Of a stretch of 64,000 nucleotides of DNA, positions 49,976 to 64,000 are shown one piece after another; position 1 is the stretch's first letter, and each line of letters opens with the position of its first letter. The translations under genes were made by a program, and so were the position numbers. The DNA is from an uncultured bacterium (GTDB lineage Bacteria > Hydrothermota > UBA3072). The stretch covers positions 15,882 to 79,881 of the forward strand of contig CAYZBF010000005.1 of assembly GCA_964476585.1 (NCBI GenBank). Direction: 5' to 3'. Under the pieces are notes generated by a model. That model did not search any database. It was not told where the DNA came from and was given only the letters and a program-made list of their open reading frames with translations.

Positions 49976-50653
49976 TTAAAAGGTATCCAGGGTTCTCATG
50001 ATCGTTCGCCCCATCTCAATAAGTTCATTCAACTTATTATAATCGTCAGGCAACTTAGTTATAATCAGGAGGAAAGAATCGGTTTCTACCTTCTCAGGGA
50101 CAGGCACTGATCTGACATCTTCTTTGGCAAAGAAAGAGAGGCTTTCTGGCTTTGTGGAAAGTATATGTGTTATCGCACGACTATTTAGTAGTTTCCTTTT
50201 GAAGCTTTCATCTTCTCCTTTTATGTAATATTCTTCTTCAATGTTCAACATACGTAGCCCTATATTTCCATTTGACTGTTTTTGCATTTGAAACTTAAAT
50301 TTCTTCTGGAGGCTGAAGTTCTTATCAATTCTAATGCTCCCAATAGCGATTAATAGTGCTAATCCCTCTTTTATCCCTCCAGGTATAGACCATTCGATAA
50401 GATAAGCAGGATGGCTTGATAAGGCAAAACTTAGATATGGCTGTTTACCTTCAGCTGTTTCTTTTAGAGCTAAGCCAAGTCTTTCTGCATACTCCTTCCA
50501 TTTTTCCCTTTTGTTTCCCTCCCTCTTTTTATCAAGTATCTTCTTTGCTACTACTATTATTAATTGCAGTAATATAAAAGCAGGAAGCAGGAAGTTCTTA
50601 AACTTCTCGAATATATGTTCCATTGTAGAAAAAATATATATAAATAGTTGCAT
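49976..50653 (-). CDS. Hypothetical membrane protein
   Basis: 225 aa, N-terminal TM (LLPAFILLQLIIVVA); first gene of the minus-strand TPR operon. Confidence 0.45.
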   Translation of the reverse strand: MQLFIYIFSTMEHIFEKFKNFLLPAFILLQLIIVVAKKILDKKREGNKREKWKEYAERLGLALKETAEGKQPYLSFALSSHPAYLIEWSIPGGIKEGLALLIAIGSIRIDKNFSLQKKFKFQMQKQSNGNIGLRMLNIEEEYYIKGEDESFKRKLLNSRAITHILSTKPESLSFFAKEDVRSVPVPEKVETDSFLLIITKLPDDYNKLNELIEMGRTIMRTLDTF

Positions 50654-50827
50654 TCAGTCAACCCTTTTACAAAAATTAGATCTTCCCTCTTGTTTCTTTA
50701 CGCCTTGATCTATTAGATCCCTGGGTGTGTGCCTCTTTGACCTTTGTCTCTGTAGTGACCCTATTTCTCAAAAACCCCTCTTGACACATCCTAATATTCT
50801 ATTATTCTTACCCTAAAAGGAGGACCA

Positions 50828-51334
50828 ATGAACAGAAGGTTGCTACGAATTCTGGATGTCCTTATTGTTATAGCGTTTGTTTTTCTGTTGTATATAGTAA
50901 TCGAACCTCAGTTTAGACAGGGAAAGATAAATACGAATAGGATTAAACTCCAATCTAATATGTTTACTGTAAAGGCTGGATTAGAAAGGTATATTGCGTT
51001 TCATGAGGGTACATACCCGTCCAATATTCAACGGATCTATGATAATTTGAAAGGAATTGAATTACCGGAAAATCCATATACAGGGGAAAAAATGGACATT
51101 TCTGAGTTTGTTCAATTTAAATATGATATTCCCAGTGAAGTAGAGGATGATGCGGTGAATGGAATAAACGGTACACAGAGAGGTAAGCCAGGGCAGATTG
51201 GAATTGGGTTTTTCATACCGATGGGCAAGGATTCAATTCCCACGAAATTTGGTATAATTGGCTTTGATGAGAATGGAAAGCCGTATACTCTAAAGGAGGG
51301 GGAAAAAGAAAGAGTTGTAGTGTTGAGTGGTTAA
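50828..51334 (+). CDS. Pilin/pseudopilin-like protein with a non-canonical N-terminus
   Basis: AAAGGAGG RBS; N-terminal TM helix, then QSNMFTVKAGLERYIAFHEGTYPS, resembling the post-helix region of type IV pilin-like / DUF1559 proteins; no G-F-T-L-I-E prepilin cleavage motif. Confidence 0.45.
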   Translation: MNRRLLRILDVLIVIAFVFLLYIVIEPQFRQGKINTNRIKLQSNMFTVKAGLERYIAFHEGTYPSNIQRIYDNLKGIELPENPYTGEKMDISEFVQFKYDIPSEVEDDAVNGINGTQRGKPGQIGIGFFIPMGKDSIPTKFGIIGFDENGKPYTLKEGEKERVVVLSG

Positions 51335-51345
51335 ATTTGAGGTAG

Positions 51346-52224
51346 TTGGATCTTTTAAAGCCTGAAGTAATAGAAAAAGTAGGTGCCCTTAATTTCAGGG
51401 CACGATTAGTAGTAGAAGGATTTCTTATTGGCCTTCATCAAAGTCCTTATCATGGTTTCTCGCTTGAATTCTGTGAGCATCGTCCTTATTATCCAGGAGA
51501 CCCTATCAACAGAATTGACTGGAAACTCTATGGGCGCACAGATAGATATTATTTAAGAAAATATCAGGCTGAGACAAATCTCTCTGCATACCTCATATTG
51601 GATAAAAGTAAGTCGATGGATTATGGTAAAGAGATAACTAAATTTCATTACGCAAGAACTCTTGCCGCTAGTCTTGCATACCTCTTATTACATCAGAATG
51701 ATTCTGTGGGACTCGTCATTTTTGATAATGAGATTAAATCGCTAATACCTCCTAAAAGCAGTCTCAATCACCTTAAGCTTTTATTAAGAGACCTTGCCAA
51801 TACGGAACCCTCACAGAAGACTTCCATTTCTGATGTAATCTTTAATTTTGCTTCCACAATAAAGAAAAGGAGTCTAATTATTGTGTTTTCGGATTTACTC
51901 GAAGATCCAGAAAAAGTAATGAAAGCTTTCAAGCTCGTTAAAGTAAGAAAGAATGAGGTCATTGTTTTTCATATTCTTGATTCAGATGAAATGAAATTTA
52001 ATTTTACGGAACAAGCGCTTTACAGGGATATGGAAGATCATACGACTGTTCCAGTGAATCCTTTAAATATAAGAGATTTATATAGGAAGAGATTCAATCA
52101 GTTTCTTGAGCAATACAGGTCAGGATTTGCGTACAACAGAATCGATTATTCCCTTATCACCACTGATACTGCATATGATGAAGCACTCTCAGCCTATTTA
52201 ATTAAAAGGAAGCGTCTATTATGA
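51346..52224 (+). CDS. DUF58 domain protein (MoxR-associated vWA-like)
   Basis: HQSPYHGFSLEF.EHR.Y.PGD..R.IDWK..GRTD..Y.R.Y..E; LILDKSKSMDYG; 292 aa. Confidence 0.8.
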   Translation: MDLLKPEVIEKVGALNFRARLVVEGFLIGLHQSPYHGFSLEFCEHRPYYPGDPINRIDWKLYGRTDRYYLRKYQAETNLSAYLILDKSKSMDYGKEITKFHYARTLAASLAYLLLHQNDSVGLVIFDNEIKSLIPPKSSLNHLKLLLRDLANTEPSQKTSISDVIFNFASTIKKRSLIIVFSDLLEDPEKVMKAFKLVKVRKNEVIVFHILDSDEMKFNFTEQALYRDMEDHTTVPVNPLNIRDLYRKRFNQFLEQYRSGFAYNRIDYSLITTDTAYDEALSAYLIKRKRLL

Positions 52225-53834
52225 GTTTCCCTCAGTTTCTTTTTTTGTTCTTACTCATTCCCGTTCCGATTATATTCCATTTTATATCAAAGAGGATCTT
52301 ACGAAACAAAGACTTTCCTTCGCTCCTCTTTGTTTTAAAGAGTGATAGAAGACTCCTACGATGGTTCCACCTGAAAAGATTACTATTACTTCTTCTGAGG
52401 GTTGGAGTTATTGTATCTTTGATATTTTCTGCTTCCAATCTTCTCATACCCTTTTCGTTTAATGAACCATCTAAAACAATAATCTTAGATAGATCCCTCT
52501 CCATGAAGGAGCTGGATATATCTTCTCATAAGGCGGATGTAATTGTTCCTAATAGAGGAGGGATATCTCTTATTCACAAGGCGCTCAAACTACATCCGAT
52601 AGGCATTCTAATTTCAGATGCTCAGCGGAATGGGTTTATAAAATTACTAAGGGGGGGGAAAAGCTATCCAGGGATTGATTTAGAGAAGATTTCTCTGCCC
52701 AAAGGGAATATCGCTATTAAAGATCATCAGATTGGGTCTCCTTTCGTTGGTGAAGAAGTTGATATTGTATTTACCCTTTTAAATCAGTATAAATATTCAA
52801 AGACCGTTCCTTTTTCATTATATATAGATGACAAGGAGTTAAAGAGAAAGGATGTGTCCCTTAATCAAGGAATCAATGAGATATCATTCCATCTGTCCTT
52901 ACCTGAAGGCCTACACAAAGGCTCCCTCGTAGTTTATGATAAGGGAGGTTTCGAATTCGATAACATTCGATATTTTACTCTTTGTATAATACCGAAGACG
53001 AAAGTTGTCATATATTCTTCTATGAATCCGCTGAAACTCCTTGCTGCTTTGAACTCTTCCTCCTTTCAAGTGAAGTGGAGTAAAGGGCCACTCATAGAAA
53101 CAGAGGGAGATATTTTTGTAGTGGATGATTTTCCTTTGGAGACTGCGCCAAATAGTATAAAAGGATCTCTGCCAGGTATTATTTGCTTTTCGGGCGGAGT
53201 TAAATCTCCCTTAGCAGACGAGATTCCATATAAGGTCTCAAAAATAGCCAACTTTCCTGTTTTCTCTCCTTTTGGGAAACTTCAAACCATTTGTAATATT
53301 CCCATACGTTATAATTTTAAGCTTAACAGGGGGCAAACGCTTTTGTATTTTGAAAATGGAGATGCCTTTCTCAAAAGAGAAGGGAATCTGTTTTTCTTAC
53401 CGATCTCCCTGGATGAATCAGATTTATCACTCCATCCTGTTTATGTTCCTTTCCTATATCAACTCATAGCTTCCCTGTTGAAGGAAGATTTCAACAAGGA
53501 TATATTGATAGACCAAGTAGTTGTTATAAAGGCTCCATTTAAACCTTGTGTAATTTCCCCTGAGGGGAAAAGATACTTCACGGATTCAATAGGGGATAAT
53601 AGATACCTGTTTAGACAGACTGGAAGGCCAGGAATTTACGGGGTTTCGGATGGAACTGGGATTAGAGGTTATATATCTGTCAATCCTGATCCAACTGAGG
53701 CGTTGTTGGACACATTAAAAACCCAAGAGATAGTGACTCTATTTGGAAAGGAAGGCTATAATAATGGAACAACCTTTTTCCTTCTGATTGGTTTTTTGTT
53801 TTTTGTGCTTTCAGTGTTGCTTGAGAGAAAATAA
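52221..53834 (+). CDS. BatA-like protein with N-terminal double-TM anchor domain
   Basis: MSFPQFLFLFLLIPVPIIFHFISKR...LLRWFHLKRLLLLLLRVGVIVSLIF, the two-helix N-terminal domain typical of BatA-type proteins; IILDRSLSM; C-terminal TM; 4-nt overlap with the DUF58 gene. Confidence 0.6.
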   Translation: MSFPQFLFLFLLIPVPIIFHFISKRILRNKDFPSLLFVLKSDRRLLRWFHLKRLLLLLLRVGVIVSLIFSASNLLIPFSFNEPSKTIILDRSLSMKELDISSHKADVIVPNRGGISLIHKALKLHPIGILISDAQRNGFIKLLRGGKSYPGIDLEKISLPKGNIAIKDHQIGSPFVGEEVDIVFTLLNQYKYSKTVPFSLYIDDKELKRKDVSLNQGINEISFHLSLPEGLHKGSLVVYDKGGFEFDNIRYFTLCIIPKTKVVIYSSMNPLKLLAALNSSSFQVKWSKGPLIETEGDIFVVDDFPLETAPNSIKGSLPGIICFSGGVKSPLADEIPYKVSKIANFPVFSPFGKLQTICNIPIRYNFKLNRGQTLLYFENGDAFLKREGNLFFLPISLDESDLSLHPVYVPFLYQLIASLLKEDFNKDILIDQVVVIKAPFKPCVISPEGKRYFTDSIGDNRYLFRQTGRPGIYGVSDGTGIRGYISVNPDPTEALLDTLKTQEIVTLFGKEGYNNGTTFFLLIGFLFFVLSVLLERK

Positions 53835-54099
53835 CGGTTAATAATATACATAATCATACAGGGAACACAAGAATGGTCAAAGATCATGTATATTCAATGC
53901 AAAATGAAGATTGTAAAATGCAAAGTGTAAATTGCCGCCCACCTCTAATTTTTTGCTAAACTCACAAAGAATGCAAAGAAACCAAGAAATAAACGGTGTG
54001 TTGGGAATAGATTTTAATTTTTCATTTCTCAATTTGCAATTTTCACTTTTCATTGTAGCGAAGCTACTATATATTTGTAATTGAAACTAAGGGGGTATT

Positions 54100-55422
54100 A
54101 TGGAGAAAATATCTGTCTGGAAGCATGTAGATGATACGAAGAGAATTTTTAGTTTTGCTGAGGATTATATTGAATTCCAAAATAGGAACAAAACTGAAAG
54201 GGAGTTTGTTAAATCATCCATGGGAATACTATCTAAAAGGTCAGAATTCTTCGCAAAGAATATTAGGAATAAGGCACTTGTTGTTGCAAAACCGTCTAAG
54301 GATATTCTCGATAGCGGAATGCGGATTATAGCTGCTCATATAGATTCTCCACGGATAGATCTTAAACCCGCACCTCTATATGAAGAACAGGAGCTCGTTT
54401 TATTAAAGACCCACTATTATGGAGGTATACGGAAATATCAATGGCTTTCAATTCCATTGGCTATCCATGGTGTGGTAGTCACGATGAGTGGTGAGGTAAA
54501 GGAGATAGTAATCGGTGAGGATGATAAAGATCCAGTTTTTACAATTCCTGATCTGTTGCCCCACCTTTCTAAGAAGCAACAGGATAAGAAGATAAGTGAA
54601 TTTGCACAAGGAGAGGAATTGAACGCCCTATTTGGCTCCATACCAAAAGATACCGATGAAAAGAATCCAGTTCTCCTCGGCATCTTAAATCTACTTAAAG
54701 AGAAATATGGTATAGAGGAAGAAGACCTCATTAGTGCAGATCTTGAACTCGTCCCCGCCTGGAAGTCAAGAAGTGTGGGCATCGATGAGAGTTTTATTGG
54801 CGCATATGGTCATGATGACAGGATCTGTGCATACTCTGCTCTCAAGGCAATACTTTCTGTAGAAGGCACGAAGAGAATTCCAGCAGTAGTCCTATTTGAT
54901 AAAGAAGAGATAGGTTCTGAAGGTAATACAGGTGCACGCTCGCAGATCGTCTCTGACTTCATTATGGATATTCTGAAAGCAGTTGATATAGTTCCAGCCT
55001 ACAGAAATATAAGGGGGATTATCGAGAAATCTTCGGTTATCTCAGGAGATGTTAATGCTGGTTTACATCCCACCTATCCTGATGTTCAGGACAAATATAA
55101 CGCAGCCAAAATAGGATTTGGCGTTGTTCTTACCAAGTACACAGGGATTAAAGGAAAAGTAGCTAGCAGTGAAGCCAGTGCTGAATTCGTTGCGGAGGTA
55201 AGGAAGATATATAACGAAGCCAGTGTGAGATGGCAGGTTGGTGAACTGGGGAAGGTGGATCTTGGTGGGGGTGGAACCGTAGCCAAATTCTTAGCGCAAC
55301 TCGGATTCCAGGTTATTGATTCTGGTCCTCCGGTTCTCGCTATGCATTCACCTTTTGAAATAGTGAGTAAGGGAGATTTATTTCATGCCTATAAAGGATA
55401 TAAAGCTTTTCTGGAAGCATAA
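54100..55422 (+). CDS. M18 family (aspartyl) aminopeptidase
   Basis: IAAHIDSPRIDLKP, HDDR and other metal-ligand spacing typical of M18; 440 aa; GGGGT RBS. Confidence 0.75.
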   Translation: MEKISVWKHVDDTKRIFSFAEDYIEFQNRNKTEREFVKSSMGILSKRSEFFAKNIRNKALVVAKPSKDILDSGMRIIAAHIDSPRIDLKPAPLYEEQELVLLKTHYYGGIRKYQWLSIPLAIHGVVVTMSGEVKEIVIGEDDKDPVFTIPDLLPHLSKKQQDKKISEFAQGEELNALFGSIPKDTDEKNPVLLGILNLLKEKYGIEEEDLISADLELVPAWKSRSVGIDESFIGAYGHDDRICAYSALKAILSVEGTKRIPAVVLFDKEEIGSEGNTGARSQIVSDFIMDILKAVDIVPAYRNIRGIIEKSSVISGDVNAGLHPTYPDVQDKYNAAKIGFGVVLTKYTGIKGKVASSEASAEFVAEVRKIYNEASVRWQVGELGKVDLGGGGTVAKFLAQLGFQVIDSGPPVLAMHSPFEIVSKGDLFHAYKGYKAFLEA

Positions 55423-55558
55423 ATGACCTAGGAGAGGGGAAGTAAAAGGAAACTATATATGTGGATGAATTAACGGATATATGTGTTAATGCGTATTCTC
55501 TAACTCATTAACTCATATGTTCTTTTTACTTCTTGTGTTAAGATAATAATGGTAAACC

Positions 55559-55587
55559 TTGACAATTACTGATAAAAAATTAATATT
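55559..55587 (+). promoter_or_regulatory. Promoter upstream of cysD (TTGACA-16/17-TAATAT)
   Basis: CCTTGACA at 55559-55564 and TAATAT at about 55581-55586; AAGGAGG RBS at 55618. Confidence 0.5.
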
Positions 55588-55631
55588 TTAGCAGAGATGA
55601 CTATGAAGAAAAGAAGGTAAAGGAGGTCTTA

Positions 55632-56432
55632 ATGGATCATCTATCTAAGTTAGAAAGCAATAGTATATATATCATAAGAGAAGCTTATAATCAGTTTCAG
55701 AAGGTAGGAACATTATGGTCTATAGGAAAGGATTCTACCACTCTGTTATGGCTTATAAGAAAGGCCTTTTTCGGGAAGATTCCGTTCCCTGTAATCCATA
55801 TAGATACAGGTTATAAATTCAAAGAAATTTACCAGTTCAGAGATGAATATACAAAAAAATGGAATTTGGAACTAATTGTTCACAGGAATGAGAAAGCAAT
55901 TTCAGAAGGTATGGGGCCAGATAAGAGTAAATTGGAGTGCTGTACAGAGCTCAAAACAAATGCTTTGAAGAGTGCTATAGATAAATATGGATTCCGTGCC
56001 CTATATCTCGGGATTAGAAGGGATGAGCATGGAATAAGAGCCAAGGAGAGGGTTTTTTCTCCCCGAGACCAGGATTTTGAATGGGATTACAAGAACCAGC
56101 CTCCTGAACTCTGGGATCAATATAAGTCAAAGGCTGATGCAGAGGAACATATGAGGATTCACCCTTTGCTTGGCTGGACTGAACTGGATATATGGCAGTA
56201 TATAAAGAAGGAGAGTATTCCGGTAGTAAAACTATACTTTGCTAAGGATGGTAAGCGTTTCAGGAGTATAGGCTGCGAGCCGTGTGTAGAACCAATACAA
56301 TCTGAAGCAGATACTATAGACAAAATTATAGAGGAACTCAAGACAACAACAATTTCAGAGAGAAGTGGCAGAGCTCAGGATAAGGAGTCTGATTATATGA
56401 TGCAGAAACTCAGAGCCCTTGGGTATATGTAG
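55632..56432 (+). CDS. cysD: Sulfate adenylyltransferase subunit 2
   Basis: PAPS-reductase-fold P-loop SIGKDST; ...HIDTGYKF.E...FRD; 266 aa. Confidence 0.85.
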   Translation: MDHLSKLESNSIYIIREAYNQFQKVGTLWSIGKDSTTLLWLIRKAFFGKIPFPVIHIDTGYKFKEIYQFRDEYTKKWNLELIVHRNEKAISEGMGPDKSKLECCTELKTNALKSAIDKYGFRALYLGIRRDEHGIRAKERVFSPRDQDFEWDYKNQPPELWDQYKSKADAEEHMRIHPLLGWTELDIWQYIKKESIPVVKLYFAKDGKRFRSIGCEPCVEPIQSEADTIDKIIEELKTTTISERSGRAQDKESDYMMQKLRALGYM

Positions 56433-56439
56433 GGATGGA

Positions 56440-57672
56440 ATGGAAGACAGTGAAACTTTAAAATTCGTTATTGTTGGTCATATAGATCACGGTAAATCCA
56501 CACTTATAGGGCGCCTATTTTTTGATACTCATTCCCTTCCTCCTGATAAGATAGAAGAGGTAAAAAGAGCTTCGGAGGGGAGTGCAGATGGGAGAATTGA
56601 ATTTGCTTTCTTGATGGATCATCTTCGGGAAGAAAGGGAACAGGGTATTACCATCGATACTGCACAGACTTTTTTCAAGACACCCAAGAGAGAATATGTT
56701 ATAATTGACGCACCTGGGCATGTTGCATTTGTGAAAAACATGATTACAGGTGCATCTCAGGCAGAGGCAGCATTACTTATAGTGGACGTAGTCGAAGGAG
56801 TTGCCGAACAGACAAAACGCCATGCTAACCTTCTCTCAATGCTTGGGCTTGATCAGATTATAGTTGTAATCAATAAAATGGATTCAGTGGGATATCAGCA
56901 GGATAGGTTCAATCAGATAAAAAGGGACGTAGGTGAGTTCTTTCACGATGTTGGATTAACCACCAATTACTATATCCCAACATCTGCCTTGAAAGGGGAT
57001 AATGTGGCATCTCATTCAGATTTGATGGACTGGTATAAAGGACCGACTATTCTTGAATCTCTAGATTTGCTTGTGAATAGAGTTTCTCCCGAAGATAAGA
57101 GTCTTATTTTCCCAATCCAGGATGTTTATAAAATCTCTGGAGAGCGTATTGCTGTTGGTAGGGTTGAGGCAGGATGGATAGAGAAGGATATGGAGGTAGA
57201 AATACTTCCTGATAGAGTAAAAACAACTATCAAATCCATAGAGAAGTTTAATGAAGATAAGAATAGAGCGGTTGCTGGAGAATCAATAGGCGTTACTACA
57301 GAAGACCCGATTTTCTTACAGAGAGGAAATGTTTTATGCGTGGAAGGGAAAGAGCCTACTATTACGAAAAGTTTTGAAGCAAATCTTATATGGTTATCCA
57401 ACGAGGCTTTTGATGTTAACGAAAGGATCAAGCTGCGCCTTGCAACCCAGGAAACTAGTGGAGACGTGAATTTAATAAAGAGGAGGATTGACTCATCATC
57501 TCTTGAAGTATTGGAAGAGAATGCTTCAATTATTAAAAACCTTGAAATTGGAGATATAGTATTTGAAACTAAGAGTCCCATTACTTTAACAAAGTTTAAC
57601 GATATTCAAGAACTTGGAAGATTCGTGCTCGTCCGCGGTAATGATGTGGTAGCGGGTGGGATCATCACCTAA
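56440..57672 (+). CDS. cysN: Sulfate adenylyltransferase subunit 1 (GTPase), no fused APS kinase domain
   Basis: G1 VGHIDHGKSTLIGRL, G3 DAPGH, G4 NKMD; 411-417 aa; overlaps the cysD stop. Confidence 0.85.
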   Translation: MEDSETLKFVIVGHIDHGKSTLIGRLFFDTHSLPPDKIEEVKRASEGSADGRIEFAFLMDHLREEREQGITIDTAQTFFKTPKREYVIIDAPGHVAFVKNMITGASQAEAALLIVDVVEGVAEQTKRHANLLSMLGLDQIIVVINKMDSVGYQQDRFNQIKRDVGEFFHDVGLTTNYYIPTSALKGDNVASHSDLMDWYKGPTILESLDLLVNRVSPEDKSLIFPIQDVYKISGERIAVGRVEAGWIEKDMEVEILPDRVKTTIKSIEKFNEDKNRAVAGESIGVTTEDPIFLQRGNVLCVEGKEPTITKSFEANLIWLSNEAFDVNERIKLRLATQETSGDVNLIKRRIDSSSLEVLEENASIIKNLEIGDIVFETKSPITLTKFNDIQELGRFVLVRGNDVVAGGIIT

Positions 57673-57679
57673 AGTGTAA

Positions 57680-58447
57680 GTGGATCTGAATCTCACTGCT
57701 GTAATCTTTTTATTTGTCGTGTCATTTTTAGCTCAAACAGTCGATTCTTCACTGGGAATGGGGTATGGTACAACATTGGGACCGGTCTTGATTCTCTTAG
57801 GGTTACCACCGTTAGAGGTCGTTCCTGCAATGCTAATTTCTCAGTTATTTGGTGGCGTGTTCGGAACCATATTTCATCATAGGCACGGGAATGTTAATCT
57901 ATCAAGGGGCAGCATACACCTCAGGGTTGCATTGGTTTTAACAGGGTTCAGTTTGATTGGTGGTGTGGGAGCTGGTTATGTTGCGCTAAATATACCTCAA
58001 GTGTATATTAAGATGTACATCGGATTTATAGTTGTTTCTATGGGAATTCTCGTTCTTCTCTTTAGAACTAGATCGGTTAAATTTAGCTGGTACAAGATGA
58101 GTTTATTGGCACTTATTGCTTCTTTCAATAAAGGTATGAGTGGAGGAGGATATGGTCCTATTATGACGAGTGGCCAGATATTATCTGGAGTGCCTTCGAA
58201 GAGTTCGATAGGTATAACTTCTTTTGCAGAAGCCGCGTGTTGTTTAGCAGCAATAATGGTATATTTCTTTGGCTTAGACACATCAGATTTTAGACTTGCT
58301 CTGCCATTGACAGTTGGTGCAATTGCATCAGTTCCAATTGCAGTTCGAATTGTGAAGAAGTTTAATGAAAATAAATTTATCATTGTCATAGGCATTGTTG
58401 CAATATGCTTAGGAATGTTAACCTTAGTTAAGACCTTTTTCTTTTAA
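57680..58447 (+). CDS. TauE/SafE family sulfite/organosulfonate exporter-like membrane protein
   Basis: 255 aa, about 8 TM, LGMGYGTTLGPVLILLGLPP and a second G-rich repeat half, typical of TauE/SafE. Confidence 0.75.
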   Translation: MDLNLTAVIFLFVVSFLAQTVDSSLGMGYGTTLGPVLILLGLPPLEVVPAMLISQLFGGVFGTIFHHRHGNVNLSRGSIHLRVALVLTGFSLIGGVGAGYVALNIPQVYIKMYIGFIVVSMGILVLLFRTRSVKFSWYKMSLLALIASFNKGMSGGGYGPIMTSGQILSGVPSKSSIGITSFAEAACCLAAIMVYFFGLDTSDFRLALPLTVGAIASVPIAVRIVKKFNENKFIIVIGIVAICLGMLTLVKTFFF

Positions 58448-58464
58448 AGGAAAGGAGTGAAATT

Positions 58465-59757
58465 GTGTTTTTGGGAAAAAAGAAGAAAAGAATTATTATT
58501 CTCGGTATAGATGGAGTTCCTTATAGTTTCTTAAAGGAAGGTATAGAGAAGGGACGCTTTACGAATATTAAGGAAATATGTGAGGAGAACACCGGTTTAA
58601 AACGACATAATTCAGTGTATCCAACGGTGTCTTCAGTGGCTTGGACTTCTTATATGACAGGTAAGAATCCAGGTGAGCATAATATATATGGTTTTGTTGA
58701 TAGAGACCCAAAGCCTTTTAGATTAAAGATACCACTCGGGAGTGACAGAACTGCTAAAACCCTTTGGAAACAAGCATCGGAAGAGGGCATGAAGGTGCTT
58801 ATTATGAACGTCCCACTAACCTATCCTCCAGAAGAAGTGAATGGTGTTATGATTTCAGGATTTCTTACCACAGATATTAAAAAGGGTGTTACTCCTCCCG
58901 AACTAGCTTCTTATTTGAGAAGTAAAGGGTACGTGATAGATGTAGATCCACGGCTCGGACATACCGATAAAGCGAAGTTTATGGAAGAACTCAAGGGAGC
59001 TTTGGATGTCAGAATGGAGATATTCCATGAGATTCTTTCCAGAGACAGTTATGATCTTGCTCAATGTCATATAATGGAAACCGATCGTATCAATCATTTC
59101 TTCTGGAAGGATTATGAAGATGGTGGGGAATTCAAGGACGATTTTGTAGAGTTTTACAGGAAACTGGATGAATGGATAGGTAAAACATATAGTATATTGA
59201 ATAAAGGTGATAAGTTCCTTGTTCTCTCCGATCATGGCTTCTGTAAGGTAAAATATAATGTGGAGTTGAATCACTTCTTAGAAGAAAATGGGTACCTTTT
59301 TTATGAGAATGATAATCCTAAAAACATAACAGATCTTAAAAGCGAGTCCAAAGCCTATTCTTTGATTCCCGGGAGAATCTTTATAAACCTTAAGGGTAGG
59401 GAGGAAAAGGGATCAGTTCCTGAAAGTGAATACAACAAACTCCGGGAGGAAATAAAGGAGAAAATCCTGGAACTTAGGAGCCCTGAAGATAAACCCATCA
59501 TACAAGATGTTTTCTTTCGGGAGGAAATTTATAGCGGCGCTTACCTTCATCGTGCAGCTGACCTTATAGTCCACCCTCGGTGGGGCTACGATATAAAGGG
59601 CAATGTGAATACTGGTAAATTGTGCCATAAAGTTGAAGCTATAAATGGGATGCATACCTATGAAGATGCATCAATATTTGGGAAAAATGTTAATATAGAT
59701 GTTGTTCGTTCGATACAGGATCCCTTGATGATGATTTTAAAAAAAGAACAAAGGTAA
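58465..59757 (+). CDS. Nucleotide pyrophosphatase/phosphodiesterase (type I phosphodiesterase) family, alkaline-phosphatase superfamily protein
   Basis: ILGIDGVPYS; YPTVSSVAWTSYMTGKNPGEHNIYGF (Thr nucleophile and TG..P..H.I.G NPP motif); LSDHGF. Confidence 0.7.
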   Translation: MFLGKKKKRIIILGIDGVPYSFLKEGIEKGRFTNIKEICEENTGLKRHNSVYPTVSSVAWTSYMTGKNPGEHNIYGFVDRDPKPFRLKIPLGSDRTAKTLWKQASEEGMKVLIMNVPLTYPPEEVNGVMISGFLTTDIKKGVTPPELASYLRSKGYVIDVDPRLGHTDKAKFMEELKGALDVRMEIFHEILSRDSYDLAQCHIMETDRINHFFWKDYEDGGEFKDDFVEFYRKLDEWIGKTYSILNKGDKFLVLSDHGFCKVKYNVELNHFLEENGYLFYENDNPKNITDLKSESKAYSLIPGRIFINLKGREEKGSVPESEYNKLREEIKEKILELRSPEDKPIIQDVFFREEIYSGAYLHRAADLIVHPRWGYDIKGNVNTGKLCHKVEAINGMHTYEDASIFGKNVNIDVVRSIQDPLMMILKKEQR

Positions 59758-59816
59758 GCAAATAAATTTTTTATAACTCCCCAAATAGGTTGTATCTTAT
59801 AATAAAATTTAAATTC

Positions 59817-60893
59817 CTATAATCTCTTCCCATACACTTTATTATAGTATTCTTTATATTCACCAGTGAGAACACTGTTCATCCAGTTTCTATTGTTCAG
59901 ATACCACCTTATTGTTTCCTTTAATCCTGTTGTAAAATTAGTTGTGGGTTCCCAGTGGGTTGTGTTTCTTATCTTCTCATAATATAGGGCATATCGGAAA
60001 TCGTGCGCTTTACCCCTTGGGTCTTCAATAAAAGTTATAAGTCTATCTAAATATTCTTTACTTTTACCCGTTTCTTCTGCAAGGATTTTACAAATAAGAT
60101 GAACAACTTCAATATTTCTCATCTCAGAGTTCCCACCGATATTATAGATCTCACCTATATTTCCATTTCTTATCAACTTATCAATTGCTCTACAATTGTC
60201 TACCACGTAAAGCCAGTCACGGATGTTCATACCATCCCCATATACAGGTAGTTCTTTATCCAGAAGTGCATTCCTTATCATCAGTGGAATGAGTTTTTCG
60301 GGGAATTGATAGGGTCCATAGTTATTTGAGCTCCTTGTGATAATGACAGGGACACCATAGCTCTTAAAGTAGGAACGGCATAAGAGATCAGCAGATGCCT
60401 TTGATGCAGAATAAGGATTATTTGGGTGGAGAGGACTCTCTTCAGTAAATTTATGCTCATTGTCAAGGCTTCCGTAGACTTCATCAGTTGATATTTGAAT
60501 GAAACGCTCTATCTTGTATTCCCTGGCTACTTCGAGTAGGACAAGTGTTCCTCTGATGTTAGTTTCTATAAATGGATATGCGTTTAGTATACTTCTATCC
60601 ACATGAGACTCAGCGGCAAAATTTACAATTACATTAAAATGCTTTTTCTCAAACAGTTTATTTATTAATTCTCTATCAGATATATCTCCTTTTAGAAACT
60701 CGTATCTCCTTTCATCTTCAAAATCGTAAAGGTTTTCAAGATTGCCTGCATAGGTGAGTTTGTCAAGATTGGTGATTTGAACATTGGAATGGTTATTCAA
60801 TAAATACCTGATGAAATTTGAGCCAATAAAACCAGCTCCACCAGTAATTAAAAGAGAAAGGTCCTCGGGTAATTCCCTATTATGTTTCTCCAT
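59817..60893 (-). CDS. rfbB: dTDP-glucose 4,6-dehydratase
   Basis: ITGGAGFIGSNF Rossmann motif, catalytic YSASKASAD (YxxxK), NVRDWLYV...; 358 aa. Confidence 0.9.
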   Translation of the reverse strand: MEKHNRELPEDLSLLITGGAGFIGSNFIRYLLNNHSNVQITNLDKLTYAGNLENLYDFEDERRYEFLKGDISDRELINKLFEKKHFNVIVNFAAESHVDRSILNAYPFIETNIRGTLVLLEVAREYKIERFIQISTDEVYGSLDNEHKFTEESPLHPNNPYSASKASADLLCRSYFKSYGVPVIITRSSNNYGPYQFPEKLIPLMIRNALLDKELPVYGDGMNIRDWLYVVDNCRAIDKLIRNGNIGEIYNIGGNSEMRNIEVVHLICKILAEETGKSKEYLDRLITFIEDPRGKAHDFRYALYYEKIRNTTHWEPTTNFTTGLKETIRWYLNNRNWMNSVLTGEYKEYYNKVYGKRL

Positions 60894-61035
60894 AAATTTA
60901 TCATACTGGCTGAGAGAATTTTGTCAAGAGATGGCTATCTTCTTAAGTCAAGTCATTCTCAGCCCAGAGGTAGTATAAGAATGAAAAAAAAGAAAAACGG
61001 GTTGACATTTTTTTCTTTTATGTAATTATTCTATC

Positions 61036-62604
61036 ATGAACAAGGTTTTTATAATAGGCCTTGACGGTGCACCTTATAAAGAGTTTAAGGAATGGATAAA
61101 GAAAGGTGAATTACCGTTTCTTTCAAGGCTGTCGAAAGAGGGTGCTTTTGGTAAGCTAAGAAGTATCATTCCTGCATATTCAATGCTTGCTTGGCCGGTG
61201 ATATTTACCGGTAAAAATCCTGCGAAGATTGGCCCCTTTCTTTATAAAGGAGAAAAGAGAGGTTTTGATCCGGATTACTTCTCTTCAGCACAATTTATAA
61301 ACTTTACTGATATAAAGACCTGGTCGCTATGGGAATGGGCTTCCGAGTTTGGTAAGAGAGTAGGCGCTTTGAACATACCCATGAGTTATCCTCCCACGGA
61401 GGTGAATGGATTTGAGATCACAGGTTTCTTAACTCCAAAAGGCTCTGAAAACTTCACTTATCCTCCGGAACTAAAAGGTGAATTAGAAGGCTATCGGATT
61501 GACATTGCTCTTTCCAGTGGTATGGGTTTCGGTGACAGGACATTGAATAAAGAGGCGATACACAAGGACCTTCTTAATCTACTTGAAGAGAGAACTGAAT
61601 GGACAATTAAACTTCTCTGTAAATATGACCCGGAGATATTTATGATGAATTTCAAGGAAATGGATAATTTTATGCATTATTTCTGGGATAAAAAGGATCT
61701 CCTACTTGATTACTTTAAGAGAGCCGATAGGAGTGCGAAAAGGATATATGAGGAGTTAAAGCCTAATCATATTTTGTTTATATCTGATCATGGATTTACA
61801 GATGCCCCAATAAAATACTTCCATATCAATCAATATCTTGAAGATAAAGGATTTTTAAAAAGAGCAGAAAATGTTAAGGGCAGATTTTCAAACTTTATAT
61901 ATAAAACCGGTATAGAGACAGTGAAGAGATTTGGCTTCCTGAGGAATCTTTTCACTGATAGATTTAAGCTGAAGATAGTGAGGGAAAGTATGAAGGAAAA
62001 GATTGACTGGGATAAGACAAGGGCTTATGCCAACTGGTATGCAGGCATTTATCTTAACCCTGAATATTATTCGAATGAAGAGAGTAAAAAGGAAGGAGCA
62101 GAAGAAATTAAGGGTCTTCTTATAGATGCTAAGGACCCGGAGAATGGCAAAGCGATATTCCTTGATGCAAAGACAAAATGGGATTTATATAAAGGCGAAT
62201 ACTTTGATGAGATGCCCGATGTGGTGTATACAACTACAAAGGATTATAAGCTGAACACTAATCTTCCCGGGAAACTTATCGATAAAAGGATCGACCGCCC
62301 TGATTTAGTGGGTCATCATGTGGCTGCCCTGGATGGTATTATTCTTATTCGGGGTGATAGGGTTAAAAAGGGTATAGAATTAGGAGATAGCTCTATCAAA
62401 GATGTCTTTCCCACCGCCTGTGCACTTGGAGATATCCCAATCCCGAAAGATGTTGATGGCAGGATTCTGAAAGAAGCATTAATTGAAGGTTCTTACAGGG
62501 AAGAATATAAAGATTTACCATATTCTCAGAAAGAGGCACATTATTTATCGGAAGATGAGGATAAATCAGTAAAAGAACATCTGAGGGGGCTGGGATATAT
62601 ATAA
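61036..62604 (+). CDS. Nucleotide pyrophosphatase/phosphodiesterase family protein, second paralog
   Basis: IIGLDGAPY; IPAYSMLAWPVIFTGKNPAKIGPF; ISDHGF; 522 aa with an about 100 aa insertion relative to the first paralog. Confidence 0.7.
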   Translation: MNKVFIIGLDGAPYKEFKEWIKKGELPFLSRLSKEGAFGKLRSIIPAYSMLAWPVIFTGKNPAKIGPFLYKGEKRGFDPDYFSSAQFINFTDIKTWSLWEWASEFGKRVGALNIPMSYPPTEVNGFEITGFLTPKGSENFTYPPELKGELEGYRIDIALSSGMGFGDRTLNKEAIHKDLLNLLEERTEWTIKLLCKYDPEIFMMNFKEMDNFMHYFWDKKDLLLDYFKRADRSAKRIYEELKPNHILFISDHGFTDAPIKYFHINQYLEDKGFLKRAENVKGRFSNFIYKTGIETVKRFGFLRNLFTDRFKLKIVRESMKEKIDWDKTRAYANWYAGIYLNPEYYSNEESKKEGAEEIKGLLIDAKDPENGKAIFLDAKTKWDLYKGEYFDEMPDVVYTTTKDYKLNTNLPGKLIDKRIDRPDLVGHHVAALDGIILIRGDRVKKGIELGDSSIKDVFPTACALGDIPIPKDVDGRILKEALIEGSYREEYKDLPYSQKEAHYLSEDEDKSVKEHLRGLGYI

Positions 62605-62619
62605 AAATTACATATAAAA

Positions 62620-63379
62620 ATGTGTGATGGAGCCCCGTAGATTTACAAGGAAAGATTATTCCGAAGAACATGCGGTTGTATTTACGCGCCGATACGATGA
62701 AGGAGAACGCAAAATAAAAATTGAGAAAGTCCGTTAGTATAGTTCAAATATTAAAGGTAAGCTCATTTTGGATTTAGGTTGTGGAGTTGGATTCTTCAGT
62801 AATCTCTATAGTGAACTGGGAGCTACAGTTGTGACTATAGATTATGCAAATTCAATGGTTACTGCTACCCAAAAAAGATATGGAGAAAAATTTCATATTG
62901 TCCAAAGTGAGGCAATATTTCTTCCATAGGGTTTTATCCTTATTACAACAGATAAGAAAGGGCTTAGTGTGGGGTCCTTACATAGAAATATGTTGAAAAA
63001 TTTATACATAAATCTACTAACTTCTATACAAGCCTTTATAAAGCAGGCCTTACATTTTGAGAGATATCAAACACCTTTGTATACACATGTCAGGGAGTAT
63101 ACACCGTCAGAACTTTCCCAATTCATGGGGAATAATGGTTTTTGTCTTGAATTTATGGATACCTTCCCCGACAGGAGATTTTTTGGTCTATGGGAACATC
63201 TTATTGAATTTTTGTTCAGGGGATACCTACGGATATACAAATGGGATTCACCAATATATAAATTTAAGAAGGAAGGCCTCAAAGCTGACTCCTCTGCAGG
63301 CAGACTTTTTAAGAATATTCTTCATTTTTCATCCCACTTGGTTGGCGAAAGTATAAATATACCTATAATCAGGATATGA
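62620..63379 (+). pseudogene. Disrupted class I SAM-dependent methyltransferase (internal stops / frame breaks)
   Basis: Frame fragments: ...FTRKDYSEEHAVVFTRRYDEGERKIKIEKVR*; ILDLGCGVGFFSNLYSELGATVVTIDYANSMVTATQKRYGEKFHIVQSEAIFLP* (motif I-II); then a 136-aa ORF carrying a methyltransferase C-terminal region (YTPSELSQFMGNNGF..). Confidence 0.45.
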
Positions 63380-64000
63380 TAGAGATAAAAAAACCTTCTC
63401 TGTCGGTGCTCTCTTCACTCCCTCCTGTTTTGGGTATAAGTAATTTTACTCTTTCAGCTATAAAGACGCTCGCCCAGTGCTTTTCTCTTCAAATACTCGC
63501 TTATTATCGATTTTATCCCCCCTTTCTCAGGATTAACACTGTTAAGTATGGTAGAGCGTTAACTTCAAGTAAAGATTTCGAAATACTTTACAGTTTAAGC
63601 ATTATTAATCCATTCTCCTGGGTCAGAACATATAGGAATATTTCATCTCCTGTTGTTTTGATGGAATGGTGGAATGTTATTCAACTTCCCCATTATATTT
63701 TTCTGTCTTATTTATTGAAAAAGAAAAATATAAAAATATTTGCTGAACTTCATAATCCAGTATCGCACGAGGGCATTATTGGAGAAAGGGTTCTTTTTAA
63801 TATGTGGATGAGATTAGTTGATTTGGTAATAGTTCATACTGAGTGCTCAAGAAATGCAGTAGATCATGATTCAATCCATATCATACCGTATGGGGTATAT
63901 CCTTGCAAGGATATACCTACCAAGGAAGCGAGAAAAAAATTTTCAATTCCCAATGAAGCAAAAGTCCTACTGTTTTTTGGGAATTTAAGGCTATACAAAG
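63376..64000 (+). CDS. Glycosyltransferase family 1 (GT4-like), 5' part; continues past the window end
   Basis: Open frame from ATG 63376 to the window edge; ...VVLMEWWNV...LHNPVSHEG...HIIPYGVY...IPNEAKVLLFFGNLRLYKG, typical of a GT1 N-terminal domain. Confidence 0.65.
   Translation, partial: MIEIKKPSLSVLSSLPPVLGISNFTLSAIKTLAQCFSLQILAYYRFYPPFLRINTVKYGRALTSSKDFEILYSLSIINPFSWVRTYRNISSPVVLMEWWNVIQLPHYIFLSYLLKKKNIKIFAELHNPVSHEGIIGERVLFNMWMRLVDLVIVHTECSRNAVDHDSIHIIPYGVYPCKDIPTKEARKKFSIPNEAKVLLFFGNLRLYK

Follow-up and report, generated by a model that had tools for sequence, protein, structure and literature searches.

A candidate cytoplasmic sulfation module that pairs sulfate-activation genes with alkaline-phosphatase-like proteins in glycan loci

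The window analyzed here is a 64-kb stretch of contig CAYZBF010000005.1 (positions 15,882 to 79,881; assembly GCA_964476585.1) from an uncultured bacterium of the Hydrothermota (UBA3072). Toward its end lie cysD and cysN, which encode the two subunits of ATP sulfurylase, a gene for a TauE-family permease, and genes for two proteins of the alkaline phosphatase (AlkP) superfamily, a short paralog (AlkPS) and a long one (AlkPL). We propose that these genes encode a module for sulfating a surface glycoconjugate from within the cytoplasm, in which AlkPS and AlkPL serve as sulfuryl transferases, a reading that we judge to have an even chance of being correct. Gene order strongly supports a role of sulfate activation here in glycoconjugate modification and not in cysteine synthesis, because the synteny is conserved across phyla. 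A sulfated-glycoconjugate pathway had been suggested by a previous sequence-only reading of the window; this stands at the level of the pathway, and the details of its sulfotransferase, by-products and transporter are revised below.

In the proposed scheme, the TauE-family permease would import sulfate and the GTP-driven CysD-CysN sulfurylase would convert it to adenosine 5'-phosphosulfate (APS). AlkPS and AlkPL would then transfer the sulfuryl group, by way of a Ser nucleophile and a two-metal site, at the cytoplasmic face to a sugar or lipid-linked glycan built by the products of rfbB, a GT1 glycosyltransferase gene and genes for a YfhO-like protein and Wzx. Sister loci with sat and cysC would supply 3'-phosphoadenosine 5'-phosphosulfate (PAPS) to the same enzyme, and a shared C-terminal peptide would dock CysD, CysC, AlkPL, DUF2061 proteins and sulfatase-fold proteins to a common partner. 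The identities of the genes, their conserved order, the gene fusions, the preserved catalytic residues and the common peptide are observations, whereas sulfuryl transfer by the AlkP enzymes, the donor, the acceptor and the docking are inferred.

Sulfate-activation genes and AlkPS in the window and across phyla

Genes in the window were called by a six-frame open reading frame (ORF) listing and hidden Markov model (HMM) scans, and all genes named by the sequence-only reading were recovered in the positions it had given them. cysD (55632-56432, plus strand) encodes a short form of the catalytic subunit (266 amino acids (aa); PF01507 at 3.6e-45; NF003587 score of 362 against a cutoff of 195) with the PP-loop SIGKDS. 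The protein falls under the equivalog cutoffs of TIGR02039 (288 vs 396.6) and NF009214 (293 vs 413). cysN (56419-57672, plus strand) encodes the GTPase subunit of 417 aa (TIGR02034 score of 348.5 against 336.1; PF00009, PF03144 and PF22594), with the G1, G3 and G4 motifs GHIDHGKST, DAPGH and NKMD in place. They are followed by the gene for the TauE/TSUP-family permease (57680-58447, plus strand; 255 aa), a polytopic membrane protein whose full length is spanned by its PF01925 match (104.6 bits against a cutoff of 32.6, residues 11-246), and by alkPS (58465-59757, plus strand; 430 aa; PF01663). The overlap of cysD and cysN by 14 nucleotides (nt) and the short gaps from cysN to tauE (7 nt) and from tauE to alkPS (17 nt) give cysD-cysN-tauE-alkPS the appearance of a single operon. 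The gene for AlkPL (61036-62604, plus strand; 522 aa) lies further downstream and its product matches PF01663 at 7.8e-28. HMM classification, which had been put forward as a check on the two NPP/alkaline-phosphatase-family paralogs, places both in PF01663, and the two proteins match each other at E = 4e-35.

The previously noted lack of an APS kinase fused to or adjacent to cysDN, and of cysH and sulfite reductase genes in the window, was also borne out. The window CysN matches the CysN-CysC fusion model NF004035 over positions 20-430 of 632 only and has no APS kinase domain (PF01583), and phmmer searches with E. coli CysC and CysH seeds found neither cysC nor cysH in the 64 kb. The exact AlkPL protein is also encoded on a 10.5-kb Joint Genome Institute (JGI) metagenome contig (L001) that extends the window. 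In the 6.5 kb past the window edge, where cysC and a sulfotransferase had been suggested as targets, this contig carries genes for the GT1 protein (380 aa), a membrane protein resembling YfhO (796 aa), a Wzx-type flippase and FeoB; no cysC was found there. Sulfite reductase genes were absent from the window and from this extension, and neither the window genes nor L001 gave a Pfam match to the classical sulfotransferases (PF00685, PF13469, PF03567).

A scan at one genome per species identified 442 genomes with a relative, and 80 loci were fetched and their six-frame ORFs searched with seed proteins that included E. coli CysC, CysD, CysN and CysH (from L088). In 60 of the 80 species loci, spread over more than 12 phyla, cysD/N, cysC or sat lies at most 5 kb from AlkPS; where the flanks reach 5 kb or more on either side of the gene, the fraction is 30/34. 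Loci with cysDN only (n = 23) come from WOR-3/Stahlbacteria, Omnitrophota, Planctomycetia, Auribacterota, Nitrospirota and Blautia, and those with cysC and/or sat only (n = 37) from Zixibacteria, KSB1, Calditrichota, LCP-89, Chloroflexota, Syntrophobacterales, Latescibacterota and others. None of the 80 loci has both cysDN and cysC/sat, and cysC is near cysDN in none of the 23. Immediately 5' of AlkPS lies cysC (26 loci, median gap of 26 nt), cysN (10 loci, 4.5 nt) or tauE (8 loci, 14.5 nt). The closest genomes by AlkPS identity are those of Candidatus Stahlbacteria (79%) and candidate division WOR-3 (68%). The order cysD-cysN-(TauE or DUF2061)-AlkP repeats in glycan or lipopolysaccharide (LPS) loci of Calderihabitans, Blautia, Nitrospirota, Auribacterota, Planctomycetia, Omnitrophota and WOR-3/Stahlbacteria, with no cysC or cysH nearby, and cysD(266 aa)-cysN-AlkPS-(DUF2061 or Wzx)-AlkPL is found in glycan clusters of Calderihabitans maritimus and an Omnitrophota metagenome-assembled genome.

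Unbiased clustering of the ORFs recovered cysC (33 loci), cysD and cysN (23) and Sat-type ATP sulfurylase (20) as recurrent neighbors of AlkPS, together with sugar epimerases, GT4, a nucleotidyltransferase, Wzx, UDP-glucose dehydrogenase, GT2 and GT9; most of the 80 loci are glycan loci. SLC13 Na+/sulfate symporters are encoded in 8 loci, each beside a Usp protein. The possibility that CysDN activates an anion other than sulfate was rejected, given the sat, cysC and SLC13 sulfate symporter genes of the sister loci. Neither the cross-phylum linkage of PF01663/COG3379 to sulfate activation nor the constant lack of APS kinase in cysDN-type loci is described in the literature that we found. In a separate locus (L094:1-11417), cysD-cysN-AlkPS lies directly 3' of genes for GT9, LpxD, LpxI, Kdo kinase and an MsbA-like ATP-binding cassette (ABC) exporter, and the sulfation target in this organism may be LPS.

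CysDN without CysC is the normal layout in assimilators that use APS reductase. The window cysDN-TauE could accordingly be read as an ordinary assimilation set that stands by chance beside glycan genes; its APS would go to a reductase encoded at another site, and the AlkP proteins would have nothing to do with sulfur. TauE-family importers do occur in assimilation operons, and short cysDN operons without AlkP (L092, L095) fit such a role. We nevertheless consider this explanation improbable: the adjacency of cysDN and AlkPS is kept across phyla with gaps of 4-17 nt, AlkPS adjoins cysC in 26 other loci, Sat is fused to AlkP in some genomes, and CysD and AlkPL have a common tail (see below). Furthermore, neither cysH nor a gene for sulfite reductase turned up in the window, in the adjoining 6.5 kb or in those loci for which Pfam-annotated gene lists were made, and an Rfam scan of positions 50000-64000 gave no match and hence no S-box or other riboswitch.

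The short CysD (266-270 aa) forms a distinct and very conserved clade, with 75-88% identity to 120 homologs from several phyla (taxa include WOR-3, Omnitrophota, Phycisphaerae, a Firmicute and a Thermoplasmata archaeon), which suggests strong constraint or horizontal spread. Two contigs carry it without a full-length AlkP gene: in one from Thermoplasmata, CysD-DUF2061-CysN precedes an ORF of 239 aa that matches PF01663 only weakly (23 bits, E 7e-5), and in one from Phycisphaerae, CysD-CysN lies beside a DHH/DHHA1 protein.

A different arrangement is conserved in three Halanaerobiales loci (L003, L042 and L069), where the order is metallo-beta-lactamase (MBL)-fold hydrolase-AlkPS-PlsY-AlkPL and no sulfate-activation gene lies within 10 kb. 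The role may be linked to lipids, or the activation genes may be remote. Halothermothrix orenii has AlkPS-PlsY-AlkPL without sulfate genes. The pairing of AlkP with PlsY in the absence of sulfate genes, and the presence of CDP-alcohol phosphatidyltransferase and cytidylyltransferase genes in L006, would be in line with AlkP proteins that are phosphotransferases or nucleotide-sugar phosphodiesterases, adding phospho-substituents in the manner of PIG-N, EptA and LtaS and co-located with sulfate activation through a shared polymer. Such a function would not account for the almost invariable position of the AlkP genes beside cysC or cysN, for the fusions with sat or for the shared tail, and the known enzymes of this kind are membrane-anchored and outward-facing whereas the proteins studied here are soluble and predicted to be cytoplasmic. 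We give it little chance of being right.

The AlkP proteins as candidate sulfuryl transferases

The AlkP proteins of the loci were sorted into three subfamilies: AlkPS (76 members, in both locus types), AlkP2 (24 members, in sat/cysC loci only) and AlkPL (about 19 members of 485-585 aa, mostly in cysDN loci and Halanaerobiales). Six bimetal ligands and a Ser/Thr nucleophile are invariant across all three. In the window AlkPS, the nucleophile is S56, which aligns with T79 of PafA, and the ligands are D16, D207, H211, D256, H257 and H397; the window AlkPL has likewise kept the metal ligands and a Ser nucleophile. About 70 residues are invariant in AlkPS, including H72, N115, H202, R208, C260, R304, R312, D376 and K378, and in a residue comparison this set was the same in cysDN and cysC loci, with no 3'-phosphate-binding difference seen. 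Since the invariant residues are identical, what AlkPS recognizes, be it a whole substrate or a part of one, is predicted not to differ between APS- and PAPS-making loci. Both AlkPS and AlkPL are predicted to be cytoplasmic because no signal peptide was found in either and the first metal ligand of AlkPS, D16, comes right after the N-terminus. One locus (L078:8351-11314) encodes a 987-aa protein in which about 550 N-terminal residues without a Pfam match precede an AlkPS-type domain.

The AlphaFold2 (AF2) model of AlkPS had a predicted local distance difference test (pLDDT) score of 93, and its top structural matches were ENPP4, ENPP6, ENPP7 and PafA, with sulfatases in a second tier. The nearest characterized proteins, PhnA and NPP, are at about 14% identity, and searching the PDB by sequence brought up no relative below E 0.3. 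At a similar distance from NPP proper (Xac NPP, ENPP1-7), PhnA and PafA (13-17% identity), the window proteins also differ in being cytoplasmic, by prediction, and not secreted. Judged from an alignment made by hand, the adenine-stacking residue beside the nucleophile and the phosphoryl-binding Asn of NPP do not appear to be conserved, with S57 and F77 at these positions in AlkPS; H202, R208, C260, R304, R312, D376 and K378 are extra invariants relative to NPP. The window AlkP proteins belong to the NPP/PhnA branch (PF01663) of the superfamily but not to NPP proper. AlkPS homologs at 45-50% identity occur in many phyla. A search of 1.84 billion representatives (E <= 1e-30) gave a family of 2,054 clusters at 50% identity, and the source names seen are all generic ('alkaline phosphatase family protein', 'predicted AlkP superfamily phosphohydrolase/phosphomutase').

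The loci hold 2-3 AlkP paralogs each, a pattern typical of acceptor-specific transferases. When AlkPL was compared with 72,556 plasmid records (tblastn), 63 records were matched in up to 5 places each, all of them haloarchaeal, as are all the full-length AlkPL homologs on plasmids, and the three plasmid contexts inspected (L089, L090 and L091) hold glycan-related genes such as those for glycosyltransferases, a deacetylase and WecB. Haloarchaeal glycans are heavily sulfated.

The sequence-only reading had inferred a sulfotransferase step. The classical enzyme this would call for is absent from the window and the next 6.5 kb, and among the Pfam-scanned neighbors in the 80 loci a single classical sulfotransferase (PF00685, in L051) was found, most non-recurrent neighbors not having been scanned. 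The AlkP-fold enzymes, and not classical sulfotransferases, are the best candidates for the transfer of sulfate. As for the donor, APS itself would be the likeliest here because no APS kinase lies beside cysDN in any of the 23 loci; PAPS made with a distant cysC would be the alternative.

Rhizobial NodP-NodQ-NodH and mycobacterial CysDNC with Stf are sulfation systems that depend on CysDN or NodPQ. They resemble the window in that a dedicated CysD-CysN sulfurylase is encoded with genes for decorating glycoconjugates and not for cysteine synthesis. Unlike the window, they have an APS kinase, as NodQ or a CysNC fusion, and use NodH or Stf0 as a PAPS-dependent sulfotransferase of the classical kind; the window lacks both, and AlkP-fold enzymes stand in their place.

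A precedent for sulfuryl transfer in the superfamily comes from Halobacterium salinarum, in which Agl30 (VNG1056C) and Agl31 (VNG1057C) were identified as the sulfotransferases that act on the N-glycan (Zaretsky et al., 2025; PMC11980604). An alkaline-phosphatase-like core and a sulfatase-like fold are common to the two, and the evidence comes from deletion and from expression in Haloferax volcanii; the sulfuryl donor was left undetermined in that study (PMC11980604). As in the window, these AlkP-like proteins are encoded in a glycan cluster without a classical sulfotransferase, and Agl31 is soluble and cytosolic, as the window AlkP proteins are predicted to be. They are the only precedent in the superfamily and come from a different branch. 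In Hfx. volcanii, Agl7 (HVO_2046) 'contributes to sulfation' (PMC3892788) and is a possible member of PF01663; a search started from a haloarchaeal protein of the family matched nothing but unnamed 'alkaline phosphatase family proteins'. A 2024 review of polysaccharide sulfotransferases does not name an AlkP-type class (PMC11625862), and a literature search on COG3379/PF01663 in sulfation, or on APS-dependent or PAPS-independent sulfotransferases, found nothing on the PF01663 family.

Sat and AlkP2 are fused in ORFs of two Anaerolineae genomes (L041:5102-7711, 869 aa; L054:6431-9154, 907 aa), where PUA_2 and ATP-sulfurylase domains are joined to a PF01663 AlkP domain. Fusions of ATP sulfurylase with pyrophosphatase are known in some eukaryotes, and the AlkP enzymes could be accessory hydrolases that remove pyrophosphate, thereby pulling the unfavorable sulfurylase reaction forward, or clear 3'-phosphoadenosine 5'-phosphate (pAp or PAP), AMP or excess APS/PAPS, with the true sulfotransferase encoded elsewhere. 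Besides the fusions, a hydrolase function is consistent with the fold and the nearest structures, which are those of hydrolases, and the high conservation of AlkPS would fit a small universal substrate. AlkP2 is confined to sat/cysC loci without the GTP-driven CysN, a distribution that fits a pyrophosphatase replacing the driving force of the GTPase. However, cysDN loci are already GTP-coupled yet always keep AlkPS, the 2-3 paralogs per locus and the many haloarchaeal plasmid copies fit poorly with a housekeeping hydrolase, and with one classical sulfotransferase among the scanned neighbors a consumer of activated sulfate would be missing. In addition, a CysQ-like inositol-monophosphatase-family or PHP-domain protein is encoded in 7 sat/cysC loci and adjoins AlkPS in 5 of them. 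AlkP would not be needed for pAp removal there, because these candidate pAp phosphatases share the loci, and the pAp phosphatase candidate function of AlkP was downgraded on the same grounds. The earlier suggestion that the NPP-family proteins recycle nucleotide by-products is therefore unlikely. We regard an accessory hydrolase function as a whole as possible but rather doubtful; the assimilation and phosphotransferase explanations are less likely still.

Several points weigh against AlkPS and AlkPL as sulfuryl transferases. Two-zinc sites of the AlkP/NPP type normally attack phosphorus and are poor catalysts of sulfuryl transfer. The closest solved structures (PhnA, NPP and PafA) are all of hydrolases, and conservation of AlkPS at 45-50% across phyla is above that usual for glycan-modifying transferases. 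Agl30 and Agl31 belong to the PF00884 sulfatase branch, whereas the window proteins match PF01663 only. The Sat-AlkP2 fusion could equally mean removal of pyrophosphate. At the level of gene context, 20 of the 80 loci are without a nearby activation gene, though most such contigs are short; the Halanaerobiales loci have no sulfate-activation gene within 10 kb; short cysDN operons exist without an AlkP gene (L092, L095); and a cysC may be present elsewhere in the genome, outside the 64 kb and 6.5 kb searched. Finally, the AlkP proteins of these loci belong to a functionally uncharacterized family, and their transferase activity is a prediction.

A C-terminal peptide shared by non-homologous proteins

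Proteins of these loci that are not homologous to each other end in the same short peptide, here termed the LGY tail. In the window, CysD has the tail MMQKLRALGYM (56397-56429, plus strand) at its C-terminus, ESDYMMQKLRALGYM, and AlkPL ends in an acidic stretch followed by the tail, SEDEDKSVKEHLRGLGYI (62548-62601, plus strand), both read from the sequence. Examples of the tail peptide are YSEEEEEKIKQRLRDLGYI and …KEHLRGLGYI. When 1003 non-overlapping ORFs of the loci were scanned for [KRQE]L[KRAEHQ].LGY[ILMVF] at the C-terminus, 72 carried the tail, nearly all in few families. It was present on 31/33 CysC proteins, with the consensus Y[ST]xEEEExxΦxxRLxxLGYΦ, and on 22/23 short CysD proteins in cysDN loci; among database homologs of the short CysD it is on 120 of 120, each ending in LGYM. 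E. coli CysC is without the tail and E. coli CysD ends in …LKKRQGYF.

Among the AlkP proteins, the tail is found in all AlkPL but one, in 2 AlkP2 and, with one exception, in no AlkPS; only 1 of 120 database homologs of AlkPS carries it. Haloarchaeal AlkPL-like homologs have it without exception (120/120, ending in …RL[KR]GLGYME). Further carriers are DUF2061 membrane proteins, sulfatase-fold (PF00884) proteins and one CysA-like ABC ATPase. In two loci (L027, L040), CysC is tail-less and the tail is instead on a neighboring AlkP protein of 485-490 aa. Across L089-L091 and L003-L087, an acidic run followed by RLxxLGY[ILMV] is common to non-homologous proteins of sulfation loci.

Five cytoplasmic sulfatase-fold proteins of these loci (PF00884 with SGSH_C; L008:9661-10920, minus strand; L019:15778-16998; L020:12217-13614; L026:13222-14622; L047:4369-5736) have no signal peptide and no CxPxR formylglycine motif, with Thr or Ser at that position. 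Most of them bear the LGY tail, and they are similar to soluble sulfotransferases of the Agl31 type.

In an AF2 model of P0063, a natural protein with AlkPS and the tail, the tail was helical but remained unplaced, with a pLDDT of 29-47. In the simplest reading, the LGY tail is probably a docking peptide for a common partner, and docking would probably keep the labile sulfonucleotide within a complex. A pathway-wide C-terminal peptide of this kind is not described in the literature that we found.

The permease, the surrounding genes and implications for sulfation

The TauE-family protein had been read as resembling an exporter of sulfo-compounds. In related loci, the same operon slot is occupied alternately by TauE (11 loci), SLC13 Na+/sulfate symporters (8) and DUF2061 proteins (7). 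Sulfate importers of the TauE family are documented: CysZ of Corynebacterium glutamicum is one, a Pseudomonas homolog complements an E. coli ΔcysA mutant, and an Acidovorax relative of the latter shows cofitness with sulfate adenylyltransferase (PMC5840216, PMC11535334). Because the slot is shared with SLC13 symporters and TSUP importers are on record, the window TauE is by analogy a probable importer of sulfate rather than an exporter. C. glutamicum CysZ and P. fluorescens TK06_RS10770 belong to the same Pfam family, and the operon with sulfate adenylyltransferase is likewise seen here; these importers feed assimilation, and the window protein is likened to them by family and operon context only.

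Between the two AlkP genes lies rfbB on the opposite strand (59817-60893, minus strand), for a dTDP-glucose 4,6-dehydratase of 358 aa that reaches the equivalog cutoff of TIGR01181 (455.9 against 365.1). alkPL is followed by what the frame translation suggests is the remnant of a class-I S-adenosylmethionine (SAM)-dependent methyltransferase gene (62606-63379, plus strand; the JGI gene call matches PF08241), with motif I LDLGCGVGFF and, in a single continuous frame, exactly two in-frame stops, both TAG. We read it as a probably decayed methyltransferase gene, with read-through of the stops as the alternative; an identical sequence occurs in two independent assemblies (L001, L002). The 5' part of the gene for a GT1/GT4-type glycosyltransferase (63379-64000, plus strand; PF00534 and PF13692; 380 aa in the longer contig L001) reaches the end of the window. 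Genes upstream of cysD, for DUF58, BatA and an M18 aminopeptidase, are unrelated to the module, which therefore occupies the upstream end of a small glycan locus. Glycan genes do adjoin the cluster, as had been suggested, but it is not embedded in a large locus. Promoter and terminator scans gave matches at chance level only.

CysDN-based sulfation pathways are already known, and AlkP-superfamily sulfotransferases are known from a single archaeal study. Bacteria are believed to carry sulfated glycans and lipids on their surface only rarely, in part since surveys look only for classical PAPS-dependent sulfotransferases. In its widest form, our proposal is that COG3379/PF01663 is a large, unrecognized class of bacterial and archaeal sulfotransferases, with members that use APS directly, without PAPS or an APS kinase, and that are docked with transporter subunits and CysD or CysC in a metabolon through the peptide …EEExxΦxxRLxxLGYΦ; this we put forward tentatively, as a possibility on the unlikely side. 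If the AlkP enzymes are sulfuryl transferases, one would expect sulfation in hundreds of lineages, most of them uncultured, including members of WOR-3, Omnitrophota, Zixibacteria, KSB1, Chloroflexota, Planctomycetota and haloarchaea, and a family of about 2,000 clusters at 50% identity would gain a function. Direct use of APS would be a new O-sulfation chemistry, and with PAPS being expensive and PAP an inhibitor of sulfotransferases, it would be of interest for biocatalysis. The peptide shared by non-homologous enzymes of one pathway is a rare case of a pathway-wide linear motif in prokaryotes, and it makes substrate channeling directly testable.

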